DNA of 64,000 nucleotides, taken from positions 1-64,000 of the forward strand of contig JBJOMY010000006.1 of NCBI GenBank assembly GCA_046052125.1, in the 5' to 3' direction. The notes under the pieces were generated by a model. It was not told the origin of the DNA. It worked only from the letters and a program-made list of their open reading frames with translations, and did not search any database. A program made the position numbers and the translations under genes. Within the stretch, counting starts at the first letter, position 1. Each line of letters begins with the position of its first letter. Shown here piece after piece: positions 32,508 through 49,458 of the stretch. The stretch is from Cyanobacteriota bacterium (GTDB lineage: Bacteria > Cyanobacteriota > Cyanobacteriia > PCC-6307 > Cyanobiaceae).

Positions 32508-33208
32508 ATCTCGAGCCGGCGACGCTCCTCATGCAAACGGCTGCGGCGCTGCTTGGCCTCACGCAGCATTTCGCGGCCGTCGCGCAGGTATCCGTCCACA
32601 TAGCCCATGGTGTAGCGCTCCAGCTCGGTGAGCGCGTCCTGCACTTGGGATAGGCAGTGATAGAGGCTCAGGCTGAAGCCATGCGCTGAAGCAGGTGCAG
32701 CCAGGGAGCGGTAGAGCGCTTCCACCTTCTCCATCCGGGCCTGGCTTTGCTCGAGGAAGGCGCAGAAGCTTTCCATGAGCTCGTCGTCGTAAGGATCCGC
32801 GGAGAGGGCCCTCAGCTGGGCGGGGAAAGGATTGATCACCTGCGCCAGCAAACGATCAATCGGTGCGTACACCTGCTGCAGCCAGGCCACCAGCTGGGCA
32901 TCACCGCGGGCTGCTTCGGCGGTGGCGGTGCGCGCCGCACGGCCGGCCGCAGCGGAACGTGCCGTTGTTGAGCGGGTTGGGTCAACGCGGCCGACTTGAT
33001 ACAGGCGATCGTGCTCAGCGCGGCGCTGGGCATCGCCGAGCACCTCCCAGGCTGCGTTGAGCTCGAGGATCCGATGCTCATCGCCACCAGCGTCCGGGTG
33101 GTGCTGTTTCACGAGAGCGCGGTACGCCGCCTTCAGCTCTGCGGCACTCGCTGAGCTGGCCACACCGAGCACCGTGTAGGGGTCGGGGGCGGACTGTGGC
33201 GAGATCAC
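32504..33208 (-). CDS. DnaJ-domain protein
   Basis: DPYTVLGV, HHPD, LNAAWEVL; C-terminal LSADPYDDELM; GTG start inferred. Confidence 0.88.
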   Translation of the reverse strand: MISPQSAPDPYTVLGVASSASAAELKAAYRALVKQHHPDAGGDEHRILELNAAWEVLGDAQRRAEHDRLYQVGRVDPTRSTTARSAAAGRAARTATAEAARGDAQLVAWLQQVYAPIDRLLAQVINPFPAQLRALSADPYDDELMESFCAFLEQSQARMEKVEALYRSLAAPASAHGFSLSLYHCLSQVQDALTELERYTMGYVDGYLRDGREMLREAKQRRSRLHEERRRLEI

Positions 33209-33271
33209 GCGCTCCGGCAGCGGCTGCAGACCATCTTCATCGTTGGACCATCGATGGCTGCGGAGGAACAC

Positions 33272-33300
33272 AAAAAAGCCCCCCGCACAAGCGGGAGGCC
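33272..33300 (-). terminator. Intrinsic terminator of the porin 1 transcript
   Basis: Minus strand GGCCUCCCGC-UUGU-GCGGGGGGCU followed by a U run. Confidence 0.88.
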
Positions 33301-33363
33301 AAGGAGTTTTGGTGTGTGAGTAAGCGCGAGGTGCGCGTGTGAGGAGTGCTTCAGATCCGAGGA
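33272..33363 (-). ncRNA. Candidate 3'UTR-derived Yfr1-like sRNA (porin 1)
   Basis: Exact ACTCCTCACAC at 33337-33347, plus ACTCACACAC (33312-33321) and ACTCCT (33302-33307), ahead of a terminator. Confidence 0.55.
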
Positions 33364-34953
33364 TCAGAAGCGGAAGGTGGTTTGCACCAGGTAGCCGAAG
33401 CTGTTGAAGGTGTTGCCGTTACCGGTGAATTCACCCTGGGGACGCGACAGCCAGAAGATGGCCGGGGTCACAGCGATGTTGTCGCTGACCTGGAACTTGT
33501 AGAACCATTCCCAGGCGTAGTTGCCATCGGCAGGGGTGTTATCAGTGCCGCCGGTCACAAAGGTGGGCTGACCCACAGCCATGCCGAGCACGTTGCCCTT
33601 CACGAAGGCATCCTTCCAGTTCAGACCCACCATCCAGGACTGGGTGGTGAGGTTCACATCGGTGGAATCGGTGCGGCTACCGCCCACATTGCTGGAGGTA
33701 CCAATACCCCAACCAGCGCTGATGGAAGGCATCCAACCGCTCTGGAGAGGCTGCCAGTAGCCAGCCAGGTTGAAGGCGTTGGTGCCATTGTAGCCGGTCG
33801 ACACGGCAGAGCGAGCGAAGGGGGTGCCGCCTACGCTCACGCCGCGGTTGTCATAGGTGTACAGACCGGTGAGGTTCCAGTTCTTGCCGGTGTAGGCCAG
33901 CTGAACAGAGCCGGAGGCAGCAGAGTTGCCGTTGGCGATACCACCAGCCTCGGGGCTGCCTACATCACCGTTGCCGGCCACGTAGTTAGCGCCAAAGCTG
34001 AAGCCTTTCTTACCTTCTTTCCACCAGAAACCAGCACCGGCACCGAGCACCTGGCTGTTGGCCTGAGGACCACCAGCGAACTGGAAGATCTTCAGGATCT
34101 TGTCACCGGTGTAGACCGAAGGCCACACGGCGAACATGTCGTCCTGACGGACCCGGGGGCCAGCCACGATTGTGACGTTCTTACCAACGGGGAACTTGTA
34201 GTAGAGGCGATTGATCGCTACGACATCGCCGCCGTCAGCATTGCCCAGGTTCTCCTGGAAAGCAGCGTCCAGCTGAGAGAGGCGGGTGGGTTCAGCACCA
34301 AAGGCAGAGTCGCTGAAGTTACCAGCGCGCAGCTGGGTACGGAGCAAATCCTTACCGGTGAAGCTGGTGTCGAAGTTCAGGCGAACGTCGTAGTTGAAGC
34401 TCAGCGCATTGCGCAGGGCGTACTCCTTACCAGCCGCGTTGGTGTAGGTGTTGTTGTCGGTGACCTGCGAACCACCAAAGGTCTGACCGCCCAGCACCCA
34501 GCGAGTGTCGGCGCGCAGTTTGGTGGTGGTGGAGAACTGGGTGGCTTCCAGCTCGCCCACTTTGGCCTCGAGGCCATCCACGCGACCCTTCAGAACGGCA
34601 AGTTCCTTTTCGAACTCGGCCATCAGGCGCTTCAGCTCGTCGGTCACTTCAGTGATCCGGTCGAGGCAAGCGTTCAGCAGTGCGGCCGCTTCATAGCGGG
34701 TCATCGCACGCTCACCGCGGTAGGTGCCGTTGGGGTAGCCAGCGACACAGCCGTAGCGCTCGATCAGGTTGCTCAGTGCCTGGTAAGCCCAGTCGGTGGG
34801 CTTCACATCGGAGAACTGGGTGATCGAAGTCACCTGCTCCTCAGAGCCGTACTGACTCACGCCAGCGATGTTCAGGTCAGCGGCAGATGCAGCCACAGGA
34901 GCCATCAGGCCCAGGGCAGCAGGTGCCAGAAGAAGCTTCTGGAACAGTTTCAT
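33364..34953 (-). CDS. SLH-domain outer membrane porin (Som/OprB family), copy 1
   Basis: Signal peptide, FSDVKPTDWAYQAL SLH domain, coiled coil, FSTTTKL, C-terminal TTFRF; GAGGA RBS. Confidence 0.95.
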   Translation of the reverse strand: MKLFQKLLLAPAALGLMAPVAASAADLNIAGVSQYGSEEQVTSITQFSDVKPTDWAYQALSNLIERYGCVAGYPNGTYRGERAMTRYEAAALLNACLDRITEVTDELKRLMAEFEKELAVLKGRVDGLEAKVGELEATQFSTTTKLRADTRWVLGGQTFGGSQVTDNNTYTNAAGKEYALRNALSFNYDVRLNFDTSFTGKDLLRTQLRAGNFSDSAFGAEPTRLSQLDAAFQENLGNADGGDVVAINRLYYKFPVGKNVTIVAGPRVRQDDMFAVWPSVYTGDKILKIFQFAGGPQANSQVLGAGAGFWWKEGKKGFSFGANYVAGNGDVGSPEAGGIANGNSAASGSVQLAYTGKNWNLTGLYTYDNRGVSVGGTPFARSAVSTGYNGTNAFNLAGYWQPLQSGWMPSISAGWGIGTSSNVGGSRTDSTDVNLTTQSWMVGLNWKDAFVKGNVLGMAVGQPTFVTGGTDNTPADGNYAWEWFYKFQVSDNIAVTPAIFWLSRPQGEFTGNGNTFNSFGYLVQTTFRF

Positions 34954-34967
34954 GGTCCTCACACCAA
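34520..34967. repeat. Near-identical 448-bp repeat, copy A (5' end of porin 1)
   Basis: Matches 36375-36822 with 14 mismatches by hand count, no indels. Confidence 0.9.
34956..34964 (-). promoter_or_regulatory. Yfr1-complementary site over the porin 1 RBS
   Basis: mRNA GUGUGAGGA-CC-AUG pairs with UCCUCACAC. Confidence 0.7.
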
Positions 34968-34987
34968 TTGAGGGAATCCCACAAGGG

Positions 34988-35003
34988 GATAAGTCAACTT
35001 ATC
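34988..35003. promoter_or_regulatory. AT-rich palindrome overlapping a putative -10 of porin 1
   Basis: GATAAGT-CA-ACTTATC; minus strand contains TAAGTT (TAN3T). Confidence 0.45.
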
Positions 35004-35075
35004 GCGCCGCAATAGCGCGGCACCTCGCAACAGCTACGGGCGGGTGTAGCGCAGAGCACACCGCAGAAAAGCAAT

Positions 35076-35101
35076 AAAAAACCCGCGACTGAAGCCGCGG
35101 G
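35076..35101 (-). terminator. Intrinsic terminator of the porin 2 transcript
   Basis: CCCGCGGC-UUCA-GUCGCGGG followed by U6. Confidence 0.85.
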
Positions 35102-35203
35102 CAGAGAGAGGACAAACGAGGTGTGGTGAGGAGACCAATTCAGGGGAAACTCTGAGGTATGAGGAGAGAGTTTCCCGACCGGATTGGCTTTTAGATCAAG
35201 AGA
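35076..35203 (-). ncRNA. Candidate 3'UTR-derived CU-rich (Yfr1-like) sRNA (porin 2)
   Basis: 10-bp stem displaying loop CUCCUCAUACCUC, then CUCCUCACCACAC, then terminator. Confidence 0.5.
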
Positions 35204-36808
35204 TCAGAACTTGAAGGTGGTCTTGATCAGGCCGCCGAAGTTGGTGACGGACTTGTCCTGGGACAGGCCCTTACCGACTTGACCATCAAGCTGGCTGAGG
35301 TAGAAGATCGCGGGGGTCACGCTGATGTTGTCGGTGACCTGGAACTTGTACCACCACTCCCAGGCGTAGTTGCCGTCGTTGGGGGTGTTGTTGGAGTTGT
35401 CGTTGTAGCGGGTCACGAAGGTGGCCTGACCAACGGCCATACCCAGGGCATTGCCCTTGATGAAGGCGTCATCCCACTGCAGACCCACGTACCAGGACTG
35501 GGACTGAGGACCGTCGAAACCGAAAGCATCATCCTGGCCGTTATAGCCGTTGATGCCCCAGCCGGTGCTGATGGAGGGAACCCAGCCGCTGGTGGAAGGC
35601 TGCCAGTAGCCGCTCACACCGAAGGAGTTGGTGCTGTTGGCAGCAGCGCCCAGGAACTGGTTCAGGATGGTGCCGTTACCAGAGGCAACGCCATTGCTGT
35701 AGTTGTAAGCAAAGGCGATACCAGCGTTATCGCCGGCGTAGCCGAGCTGAGCGGTGAAGGTCTCCTGGGATCCGGAGGTACCAATACCGCCGACTTCAGG
35801 TGCGCCCACGTCACCGTTAGCAGCCACGTAGTTGAGGCTGAAGCTGAAGCCGTTCTTCTCGTACCACACACCGGCACCTGCACCCAGGTTCAGGTTGTAG
35901 GTACCAGGAGCACCGGCGTAGGTGAAGATGTCGAGGACGGTGTCAGCGGGATACACGCTGGGCCACATGGCCAGCATGTCGTCCTGACGAACCTTGGCGC
36001 CCACGGTGACGGTGATGTTGTCACCAACAGGGAACTGATAGAAGAGGCGGTTGATGGCCACCACGTCGCCGCCATCAGCGTTGCCCATCTCTTCCTGGAA
36101 GGCCACTTCCAGGTTGTTCAGAGCAGAGACACCGCCCACTGCGCCATCGGTGCTGCCATAAGCAGTTGCACTACCGAAAGCGGAATCGGCAAAGTTACCG
36201 GCACGCAGAGTGGTGCGCAGCAGGTCCTTACCGGTGAAGCTGGTGTCGAAGTTCAGGCGAACGTCGTAGTTGAAGGTGGTTGCACCCTCATCAGCCTTGT
36301 AGGCGTTAGCGAGAGTGGTGTTGCTGCCGCCGAAGCTGTTAGCGCCGAGCACGAAGGTGGCGATGCCCTTCAGCTTGGTGGTGGTGGAGAACTGAGTGGC
36401 TTCCAGCTCACCCACTTTGGCCTCGAGGCCATCCACGCGGCCCTTCAGAACGGCGAGTTCCTTTTCGAACTCCTTCATCAGGCGCTTCAGCTCGTCGGTC
36501 ACTTCGGTGATCCGGTCGAGGCAGGCGTTCAGCAGTGCGGCCGCTTCATAGCGGGTCATCGCACGCTCACCGCGGTAGGTGCCGTTGGGGTAGCCAGCGA
36601 CGCAGCCGTAGCGCTCGATCAGGTTGCTCAGCGCCTGGTAAGCCCAGTCGGTGGGCTTCACATCGGAGAACTGGGTGATCGAAGTCACCTGCTCCTCAGA
36701 GCCGTACTGGCTGACGCCAGCGATGTTCAGGTCAGCGGCAGACGCAGCCACAGGAGCCATCAGGCCCAGGGCAGCAGGTGCCAGAAGAAGCTTCTGGAAC
36801 AGTTTCAT
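35204..36808 (-). CDS. SLH-domain outer membrane porin (Som/OprB family), copy 2
   Basis: Same N-terminus as copy 1, divergent barrel, C-terminal KTTFKF. Confidence 0.95.
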   Translation of the reverse strand: MKLFQKLLLAPAALGLMAPVAASAADLNIAGVSQYGSEEQVTSITQFSDVKPTDWAYQALSNLIERYGCVAGYPNGTYRGERAMTRYEAAALLNACLDRITEVTDELKRLMKEFEKELAVLKGRVDGLEAKVGELEATQFSTTTKLKGIATFVLGANSFGGSNTTLANAYKADEGATTFNYDVRLNFDTSFTGKDLLRTTLRAGNFADSAFGSATAYGSTDGAVGGVSALNNLEVAFQEEMGNADGGDVVAINRLFYQFPVGDNITVTVGAKVRQDDMLAMWPSVYPADTVLDIFTYAGAPGTYNLNLGAGAGVWYEKNGFSFSLNYVAANGDVGAPEVGGIGTSGSQETFTAQLGYAGDNAGIAFAYNYSNGVASGNGTILNQFLGAAANSTNSFGVSGYWQPSTSGWVPSISTGWGINGYNGQDDAFGFDGPQSQSWYVGLQWDDAFIKGNALGMAVGQATFVTRYNDNSNNTPNDGNYAWEWWYKFQVTDNISVTPAIFYLSQLDGQVGKGLSQDKSVTNFGGLIKTTFKF

Positions 36809-36822
36809 GGTCCTCACACCAA
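36375..36822. repeat. Near-identical 448-bp repeat, copy B (5' end of porin 2)
   Basis: Offset 1855 bp from copy A. Confidence 0.9.
36811..36819 (-). promoter_or_regulatory. Yfr1-complementary site over the porin 2 RBS
   Basis: mRNA GUGUGAGGA-CC-AUG. Confidence 0.7.
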
Positions 36823-49369: not shown

Positions 49370-49458
49370 CGGAGAGGGAGGGATTCGAACCCTCGACAGA
49401 AGTTGCCTCCTGTAACTCCTTAGCAGGGAGCCGCTTTCAACCACTCAGCCACCTCTCC
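49370..49458 (-). tRNA. tRNA-Ser(GCT)
   Basis: GGAGAGG acceptor stem, anticodon loop CT-GCT-AA, long variable arm, GGTTCGAATCC; CCA not encoded. Confidence 0.97.

Follow-up and report, generated by a model that had tools for sequence, protein, structure and literature searches.

A candidate Yfr1-type pairing module in the 3′ untranslated region of a picocyanobacterial porin mRNA

Results

Two tandem porin genes and the tail of porin 1

Few regulatory RNAs of cyanobacteria are as conserved as Yfr1 and Yfr2, and of all Yfr1 targets the som porins have the best validation. Here we analyze a window of 64,000 nt from a Cyanobiaceae genome (Cyanobacteriota bacterium, GenBank assembly GCA_046052125.1, contig JBJOMY010000006.1, positions 1 to 64,000, forward strand), in which a som-type porin gene on the minus strand carries an exact Yfr1 undecamer in its 3′ untranslated region (3′UTR). 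This gene, porin 1 (33364..34953, −), has 529 codons plus a stop, encodes SLH and OprB domains (Pfam matches of 2.8e-09 and 2.5e-16, respectively), and ends with Phe-stop, UUC UGA, at 33369-33364, the TGA stop codon lying at 33366-33364 (−). A mechanical list of open reading frames had begun porin 1 at a GTG; we corrected the start to the ATG at 34953-34951, which is preceded by GUGUGAGGACC, and the N-terminus MKLFQKLLLAPAALG is common to 79 surveyed porins. The tandem paralogue, porin 2 (35204..36808, −; SLH and OprB), is 65% identical to porin 1, by homology with which its start was assigned to the ATG at 36808-36806.

The same box, GUGUGAGGA, lies over the Shine-Dalgarno sequence of both genes, at 34956..34964 (−) for porin 1 and at 36811..36819 (−) for porin 2, in each case 2 nt before the ATG, and the two leaders have the sequence GGUGUGAGGACCAUG in common. 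A first-pass annotation of the window had proposed that the box covers both ribosome-binding sites (RBSs) and forms a 9-bp complement to the Yfr1 word in the porin 1 tail, and both points were borne out. Three matches to GUGUGAGGA occur in the window compared to 0.31 expected, a count reached by none of 100 shuffles; two are the porin leaders and the third is the complement of the Yfr1 word itself. The porin 1 leader, CCCUCAAUUGGUGUGAGGACCAUG, is identical in four relatives (G007, G008, G011, and G017) and differs at two bases in a fifth (G014). We considered, and dropped, a local anti-Shine-Dalgarno hairpin within the leaders of the porins (CCUCA...UGAGG), as the leaders fold without it (z = −0.39 and −0.86).

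The 3′UTR module of porin 1 extends from 33371 to 33272 (−), about 98-100 nt, and consists of three predicted helices and two unpaired stretches. Hairpin 1 (33348..33371, −), present in both the minimum-free-energy (MFE) and centroid folds, is built over the last codon and the stop codon (GCUUC-U-GAUC CUCG GAUC-U-GAAGC). It is followed by seed 1, the exact Yfr1 undecamer ACUCCUCACAC (33337..33347, −), which is predicted to be unpaired in both folds, and then by hairpin 2 (33324..33336, −), a predicted GCGC/GCGC stem of four pairs whose loop, ACCUC, would present a second anti-Shine-Dalgarno-like motif in exposed form. In most relatives this loop reads UCCUC. The unpaired stretch between hairpin 2 and the terminator reads UUACUCACACACCAAAACUCCUU; there lies seed 2, ACUCACACACCAAAA (33307..33321, −), predicted to be unpaired in the centroid fold and the most conserved stretch of the element, with ACUCACACAC at 33321-33312 (−) as part of its region. 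A third CU-rich motif, ACUCCU (33302..33307, −), lacks conservation in relatives. The intrinsic terminator (33272..33300, −) has a 10-bp stem (33300-33277) with eight GC pairs, followed by U6 to 33272. Folding of the whole tail gave an MFE of −43.7 kcal/mol (z = −6.06), with both seeds unpaired and none of 200 shuffles as stable. Thus, the CU-rich motifs, GCGC hairpin, and terminator of the first-pass annotation all stand at the minus-strand positions it gave them, and its seed does lie between the porin stop and a strong terminator, in a segment predicted to be single-stranded.

Within the window, ACUCCUCACAC is the sole match allowing at most one mismatch. A single match of this kind is unremarkable by chance, as 0.92 are expected at this stringency and 63 of 100 shuffles contain one or more; the real support for the element comes from conservation and structure.

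Conservation and covariation within the genus

We searched 40 related genomes with the coding end and tail of porin 1. The tail alone was matched in 13 genomes of the same genus at 73-87% identity, often behind a porin whose coding end did not match. Mean pairwise identity among the 14 genus copies is 81% for the element, compared to 62% for the 95 nt past the terminator and 59% for the adjacent upstream third codon positions. In the 14-sequence alignment, ACUCACACA is invariant (14/14), as is the CCU of the hairpin 2 loop, and the final C of that loop is kept in 13/14; CACUCCUCAC of seed 1 is kept in most copies. Ten of the 13 aligned relatives have seed 1 as a 9-mer, ACUCCUCAC, with the GCGC stem following immediately, two further relatives have it shortened to ACUCCUC and ACUCCUCACGCA, and G024 is without ACUCCUC. 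The full 11-mer seed is particular to this genome among the 14 genus copies; the exact Yfr1 11-mer reported by the first-pass annotation is therefore correct here but does not hold as the genus-wide form.

A covariance model made from the 14-copy alignment was used to align 22 copies, some from other genera. In this alignment, which is fitted to the model structure, 92.8% of cells pair, compared to 39-52% when partners are slid, and 12 of 20 pairs change on both sides. Changes on both sides affect all four stem pairs of hairpin 2, with its CCUC loop kept, and six of the ten pairs of the terminator helix, in which 98% of cells are paired. For hairpin 1, 84% of cells are paired and two of six pairs change on both sides; other genomes have differing right arms, all of them still complementary to UUCUGA. 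The porin 1 tail is a conserved RNA module on the porin mRNA, with a predicted structure, and is probably functional. The stop-codon hairpin is kept although terminating ribosomes must melt it, a weak hint that the RNA may have an untranslated form, for instance a 3′ fragment released by processing.

Seeds and start-site boxes across the family

At E ≤ 0.01, the covariance model hit 59 of the 151 family genomes, representing 24 of 64 genera, and at least 21 of the best 30 loci start at, or no more than 45 nt past, a porin-type Phe-stop. We also surveyed porin genes using the last 200 residues of porin 1 as the query, which matched 96 of 101 genomes (150 places listed, with 185 further matches). 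The survey set was 140 genes from 54 genomes, and all counts from it apply among the matches listed; three rows of this genome, two genes with internal stops, one with a 286-residue frame, and the four lowest-scoring were left out. A 7-mer of the Yfr1 undecamer occurs within 130 nt past the stop in 59 of the 140 genes (35 of the 54 genomes), a few of which are false matches within the downstream gene, whereas the antisense strand and the last 130 nt of the coding sequence each gave 2/140. A reversed-motif control (28/140) was discarded as invalid, since CTCCTCA belongs to both the reversed and the forward 7-mer set. A lack of motif conservation in orthologous 3′UTRs had been named beforehand as an observation that would count against a functional seed; the motif is kept in the genus and in many genera, and in paralogues as well.

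Starts could be placed for 126 of the 140 genes, the other 14 being cut by contig ends or having a best-scoring start that leaves fewer than 480 residues. Scored as a 7-mer of the complementary box GUGUGAGG (typically GUGUGAGGA) no more than 40 nt before the start, the box is present in 79 of these 126. A seed before the terminator was found in 46 of the 79 box-bearing porins compared to 1 of the 47 without a box. In other genera the seed occurs in varied settings, frequently looped out on an unrelated hairpin or placed directly ahead of the terminator, which suggests that the seed word is retained rather than one inherited structure.

The same distribution bears on the idea that the tail acts only in cis, either because its seeds contact the start site on their own mRNA molecule or because it merely blocks 3′ exonucleases, with no action in trans. 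Confinement of the seeds to box-bearing genes is what cis pairing requires, the complementarity lies within one transcript, and the strong hairpins and strong terminator would suit a protective role. A 9-bp contact spanning 1.6 kb of translated message would be weak, however, and protection alone leaves unexplained why CCUCAC and CUCACAC persist when the helix sequences vary, and why the same words appear in loops of unrelated stems in other genera. We consider an exclusively cis-acting tail rather improbable.

Predicted pairing partners

Duplex energies were calculated plainly, ignoring accessibility, and were compared to mononucleotide shuffles. Seed 1 pairs with both porin start sites over 9 bp at −16.5 kcal/mol, a value reached by 7 and 3 of 300 shuffles, and with the 5′ end of Yfr2a over 14 bp at −27.5 kcal/mol, a value that none of 300 shuffles reach. 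The duplex between the genome's own Yfr1 and Yfr2a is weaker, at −23.9 kcal/mol. In all six genus genomes with a tail, a Yfr2, and a leader, the predicted Yfr2 duplex (−23.4 to −29.4 kcal/mol) beats the leader duplex (−16.1 to −16.5 kcal/mol), and tail–Yfr2 duplexes of −22 kcal/mol or below were obtained in 11 of the 13 genus genomes with a known Yfr2. The conserved CAC 5′ of UCCUC matches Yfr2 (GAGGAGUG) but not the porin leader (GAGGACCA). These values strengthen the titration of Yfr2-type antagonists, which the first-pass annotation had offered as one option among several. The seed 2 word CACACCAAAA can form 10 bp with UUUUGGUGUG in the porin 2 leader and 8 bp with UUGGUGUG in the porin 1 leader. 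The porin 2 tail, described below, presents a loop that pairs with the porin start sites at −19.7 and −20.9 kcal/mol, values reached by none of 300 shuffles. A seeded genome-wide duplex scan gave mostly GC-rich matches to the GCGC stem; lacking accessibility terms, it is uninformative.

Given that the strongest predicted duplex of the tail is with the Yfr2 5′ end, Yfr2 might simply dock on the porin 3′UTR and control mRNA stability or 3′ decay, so that information would flow from Yfr2 to the porin. Pairing of the conserved CAC with Yfr2 and not with the leader agrees with such docking, as does the report that a minority of enriched peaks in a Yfr2 pull-down from Prochlorococcus MED4 fall in 3′UTRs (PMC6778093). 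For docking, however, one seed would suffice, yet three exposed motifs and the stop-codon hairpin are kept. Porin mRNAs are also among the most abundant (contig depths; PMC5069720), and the stoichiometry thus favors titration of the sRNA over control by it. A peak of the MED4 Yfr2 pull-down at the PMM1119 3′ end passed in just one of the replicates (1.0 and 5.4; PMC6778093 supplement) and gives docking no support. Overall, we judge docking unlikely.

The words could also be kept for reasons other than base pairing, as a C/U- and C/A-rich protein site or as unstructured pre-terminator composition, with a likeness to Yfr1 that is convergent or accidental. For Yfr1 itself, Voss et al., 2007 (PMC2190773) suggested that the motif might instead bind a protein, seed 2 has no significant duplex among the partners tested, and 33 of the 79 box-bearing porins lack a seed. 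What is kept, however, are the words of Yfr1, and they are kept almost only where the start site is complementary (46/79 compared to 1/47). Such words are also rare upstream of other terminators in this genome: of 182 terminator-like sites, just six have a seed 7-mer in the 80 nt upstream, and these six include both tandem porins and one Yfr1-like sRNA. An explanation without base pairing therefore seems improbable to us, to about the same degree as action purely in cis.

Comparison with known RNAs

A search of Rfam found no catalogued family at its gathering score near the porin tail, the only match in the window being a tRNA; in this respect the catalog check suggested by the first-pass annotation leaves the tail outside known families. 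Aligned to the Yfr1 family (RF01116; gathering score 38 bits), the tail scored 15.9 bits (E = 1.9) over 33322-33369, covering hairpin 1 and the seed. We rejected the possibility that the tail is the Yfr1 of this genome on the basis of this score and because the true copy lies between guaB and trxA on another contig. Other weak Rfam matches (mmgR/suhB at 20 bits, sbrA, Cyano-1 on the opposite strand, and the Yfr1 match itself) reflect shared C/U-rich words and terminators and were not used.

Yfr1 is described as having an ultraconserved undecamer that is unpaired between two stem-loops, and its locus in marine picocyanobacteria as guaB-yfr1-trxA (PMC2190773, Voss et al., 2007). Acting through this motif, it lowers the expression of som 5′UTR-GFP fusions ~3-fold, as reported for MED4 leaders in E. 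coli reporters (PMC2796815, Richter et al., 2010), and Yfr2 is reported to pair with Yfr1 and Yfr10 and to relieve som repression in E. coli reporter assays (PMC6778093). The porin 1 tail resembles Yfr1 in its exact ACUCCUCACAC, unpaired between a 5′ hairpin and downstream helices, in its GC-rich terminator end, and in its complementarity to som porin start sites. It differs in size and layout, as Yfr1 has 54-69 nt, a 5′ stem-loop and a terminator, and an unpaired region of 16-20 nt, whereas the tail has ~98-100 nt, three helices, and extra motifs. It also differs in setting, lying between the porin and J-domain genes rather than forming a separate gene at guaB/trxA; its 5′ hairpin is built from the porin stop codon, and the tails of relatives keep only the 9-mer. 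The porin 1 tail is not a member of the Yfr1 family: it shares the motif, but its score, its size and architecture, and its synteny are not those of Yfr1.

A further comparison is with the loose class of Yfr10-type RNAs, which includes Yfr10, Yfr12, and Yfr18 of Prochlorococcus MED4 and RNAs called 'Yfr10-like' elsewhere (PMC2518516; PMC6778093). These are additional carriers of the Yfr1 motif with poorly conserved structure and position, which pair with Yfr2 and have targets that overlap those of Yfr1. Their motif is displayed in a hairpin loop. The porin 2 tail and numerous tails from other genera share this display, whereas in the porin 1 tail the motif lies between helices; moreover, the described members are separate small transcripts, often beside Yfr2, whereas the carrier here is the 3′UTR of the target mRNA. 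By its motif and its predicted pairing with Yfr2, the porin 1 tail fits this class. Two described RNAs were examined as possible precedents and set aside. The Yfr10-like RNA of Synechococcus WH8102 (probe in the PMC6778093 supplement) is free-standing and intergenic, with its own terminator, and does not lie behind a porin; its probe gave only chance matches in the contigs of this genome and one exact match in the family sample. Yfr21 of MED4, beside PMM1121 (PMC2518516), lies on the 5′ side of PMM1121 according to the peaks in the PMC6778093 supplement and is not a som tail. Full-text searches of the literature, with subscription-only papers outside their scope, did not find a description of Yfr1-type seeds in porin 3′UTRs.

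With respect to mRNA tails that regulate their own genes, OppZ and CarZ of Vibrio cholerae are reportedly autoregulatory 3′UTR-derived sRNAs that are released by RNase E and act in trans, and ApcZ is said to be a cyanobacterial 3′-end-derived RNA. The porin tail is like OppZ and CarZ in lying between a stop codon and the terminator of the same gene and in being complementary to the start site of the same transcription unit or a paralogous message, and it would likewise give feedback proportional to transcription. It differs in that RNase E processing and trans action have been demonstrated for OppZ and CarZ and would be hypothetical for the porin tail, and in that it mimics a separate, conserved trans-encoded sRNA and matches the antagonist of that sRNA. 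IpeX, an RNA from the 3′ region of a prophage porin gene, is said to lower OmpC and OmpF in E. coli. IpeX shares with the present case an origin in a porin gene tail and a proposed action on porin expression; it differs in organism, sequence, and structure, which are unrelated, and in its targets, which are porins of the host and not its own gene class.

A putative feedback module on the porin mRNA

The reading that we favor, with about even confidence, is that the tail is a Yfr1/Yfr10-type pairing module on the porin mRNA that gives negative feedback directly and/or through titration of Yfr2, because the target mRNA carries an exposed Yfr1 word bracketed by a 5′ hairpin and a terminator. The three helices (the stop-codon hairpin, the CCUC-loop hairpin, and the terminator) would hold C/U-rich anti-Shine-Dalgarno motifs in exposed form, the first of them being the Yfr1 seed, and the tail would couple the abundance of porin mRNA to the Yfr1–Yfr2–porin circuit. 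By one route, the seeds would pair with the 5′ end of Yfr2 and thereby free Yfr1; by another, they would pair directly, as Yfr1 does, with the GUGUGAGGA box over the RBSs of both tandem porin mRNAs. By either route, porin translation would go down when porin mRNA is plentiful, amounting to negative feedback with cross-talk between the paralogues. The acting form could be the full-length message or a stable 3′ fragment shielded by hairpin 1 and the terminator; a version in which a processed sRNA is the active species seems to us possible but doubtful. We infer, rather than observe, pairing in the cell, the sign of its effect, and any processing.

On a broader and more tentative view, the very abundant som mRNAs of picocyanobacteria might behave as competing RNAs in a three-tier circuit, their tails mimicking Yfr1 and soaking up Yfr2, such that the cell would read the level of porin mRNA through the ratio of free Yfr1 to free Yfr2 and adjust both porin synthesis and the wider Yfr1/Yfr2 carbon-nitrogen regulon, a self-limiting loop encoded in the tail of a target mRNA without a separate sRNA gene. 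If the feedback reading is true, the linear scheme in which Yfr2 blocks Yfr1 and Yfr1 blocks the porin becomes a closed feedback loop, and a highly abundant mRNA takes part in sRNA stoichiometry. Such a loop would bear on how picocyanobacteria set outer-membrane permeability, which is relevant to nutrient uptake and phage adsorption, and would add a cyanobacterial example to the few mRNA tails known to control the gene they belong to. The motif, the Yfr1/Yfr2 circuit, and autoregulation by 3′UTR-derived RNAs are known; what sets this case apart is that the carrier of the Yfr1-type motif is the 3′UTR of the target porin mRNA.

Several results weigh against this feedback reading. The genome's Yfr1 is predicted to pair with the porin start sites at −21.1 and −19.0 kcal/mol, more strongly than seed 1 (−16.5 kcal/mol). 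The seed 2 duplexes, at −13.0 and −15.6 kcal/mol, are near shuffled values (reached by 96 and 12 of 300), and some of the predicted pairs need hairpin 2 to be opened. The genome-wide duplex scan described above, which was unconstrained, did not place the porin leaders in its top 25. Since 33 of the 79 box-bearing porins, mainly from low-GC genomes, are without a seed, the 3′ seed is not obligatory. For the association of box and seed the Fisher p is 1e-11, which treats kin as independent and is thus overstated; part of the association may stem from shared ancestry of one porin class. The pair counts from the 22-sequence alignment are likewise biased towards the model structure to which that alignment was fitted.

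RNA coverage and a promoter scan were considered as well. In metatranscriptomes, 17 of 22 listed runs are recorded as RNA and contain parts of the stretch, and four were examined as contigs, which carry no information on ends, strand, or level and count neither for nor against. Both porin coding regions are heavily covered in all four. Contig depth is only 1.7-27 in the bin 33282-33422; in 33141-33281 it is 1.35 in X4 and 0 in the other three runs. An exact contig ends at 33362. No promoter-like site was found in 33150-35250 by a scan that is insensitive and missed the porin promoter too, and inspection by eye of the upstream coding sequence, in this genome and in relatives, showed no TANNNT at the right distance. 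Because a promoter-like site was not found, a free-standing RNA would need processing.

Yfr1 itself is abundant and is transcribed separately from a promoter of its own. These promoter results bear most directly on the idea that the element is a separate paralogue of Yfr1 that merely adjoins the porin gene, an sRNA gene in its own right whose promoter would lie within the end of the porin coding sequence. Its layout does recall Yfr1 (5′ hairpin, unpaired ACUCCUCACAC, downstream helix, U-tail), the Rfam Yfr1 alignment covers hairpin 1 and the seed, and the Yfr10 family is a precedent for additional RNAs with the Yfr1 motif (PMC6778093). In addition to the missing promoter-like site, however, the score of the tail is far under the Rfam cut-off, and in all genomes hairpin 1 incorporates the last codon and stop codon of the porin, so that the element is tied to the coding sequence. 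We regard an independent paralogue as very unlikely.

Other seeds and Yfr partners in this genome

The exact 11-mer occurs six times in the 2.64-Mb genome (G000), compared to two occurrences of a reversed control. All six belong to the Yfr network: besides the porin 1 UTR, they are the true Yfr1, three Yfr10-like repeats, and the antisense of one Yfr2. The canonical Yfr1 (G000:C5:46903-46959, 63.8 bits) lies between the genes for IMP dehydrogenase (guaB) and thioredoxin (trxA). Two Yfr2/Cyano-1 genes score 52.9 and 45.8 bits, and both are on contigs other than that of the porins. A second Yfr1-like RNA at G000:C4:319202-319261 (−) has a sub-cut-off score of 29.9 bits and an unpaired AUUCCUCACACCCCCC followed by a terminator; judged by sequence, the genome would thus have two or more Yfr1-type genes that stand alone, in addition to the porin tails.

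The 3′UTR of porin 2 (35075..35203, −; fold z = −4.75) is a second type of seed-bearing tail. A 10-bp hairpin displays a 13-nt loop, UCUCCUCAUACCU (35154-35166), and is followed by an unpaired stretch that begins UCUCCUCACCACACC (35103-35133) and by a terminator (35081-35102). Related tails of the porin 2 type, with CUUCUCACACAC in the hairpin loop, are present in the relatives G011, G014, and G008. Metatranscriptome contigs cover this tail to 35110. In runs X2 and X3, which come from different studies, an Illumina adapter is joined at 35110, just 5′ of the terminator stem, making this position a recurrent fragment end in two runs.

The Yfr10-like repeats are on contig C1, which has three near-identical copies (~260 nt compared), one of them at G000:C1:164400-164560 (L009:1440-1570; paralogues in L010 and L011). 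Each has a 7-bp stem, GGGCUGC/GCAGCCC, with the loop ACUCCUCACACC, a Yfr10-like display, and a small open reading frame that begins MAAFSMFFCDQERC lies ~45 nt downstream. The repeat is possibly a multi-copy Yfr10-type sRNA or the leader of a small-protein gene family. On the same contig, at G000:C1:266530-266640 (−), GCCUCCUCACAC stands immediately 5′ of a terminator hairpin (AGCCCCUCAGGGCUGUUUUUU); this seed-plus-terminator unit is ~1.8 kb from Yfr2b (C1:268434-268496), an arrangement that resembles the Yfr10/Yfr2 layout of Prochlorococcus. At G000:C3:29230-29330 (−), a Yfr1-type seed, UGAUCCUCCUCACACCCACACACAUG, lies in a 5′UTR directly before the AUG rather than in a tail.

Neighboring genes and a third porin

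A third porin paralogue (G000:C4:255628-257190, −) is 44-45% identical and lacks both the GUGUGAGGA box and a 3′ seed. Its reading frame runs 14 codons beyond the usual terminal Phe, and it lies near a porin fragment and a gene for a CobW-like GTPase; it may be a metal-limitation porin under different control. Directly after the porin 1 terminator is the start of a J-domain (DnaJ) gene (window 33230-33271, −), and the porin/J-domain gene order recurs across genera. In several other genera (e.g. L134, L151, and L167), the U-run of the terminator leads straight into CAUGG; judging from these sequences, the G-rich 3′ arm of the porin terminator could double as the RBS of the next gene. The tRNA found by Rfam in the window (49370-49458, −; 62.9 bits) is 89 nt long and has a long variable arm.

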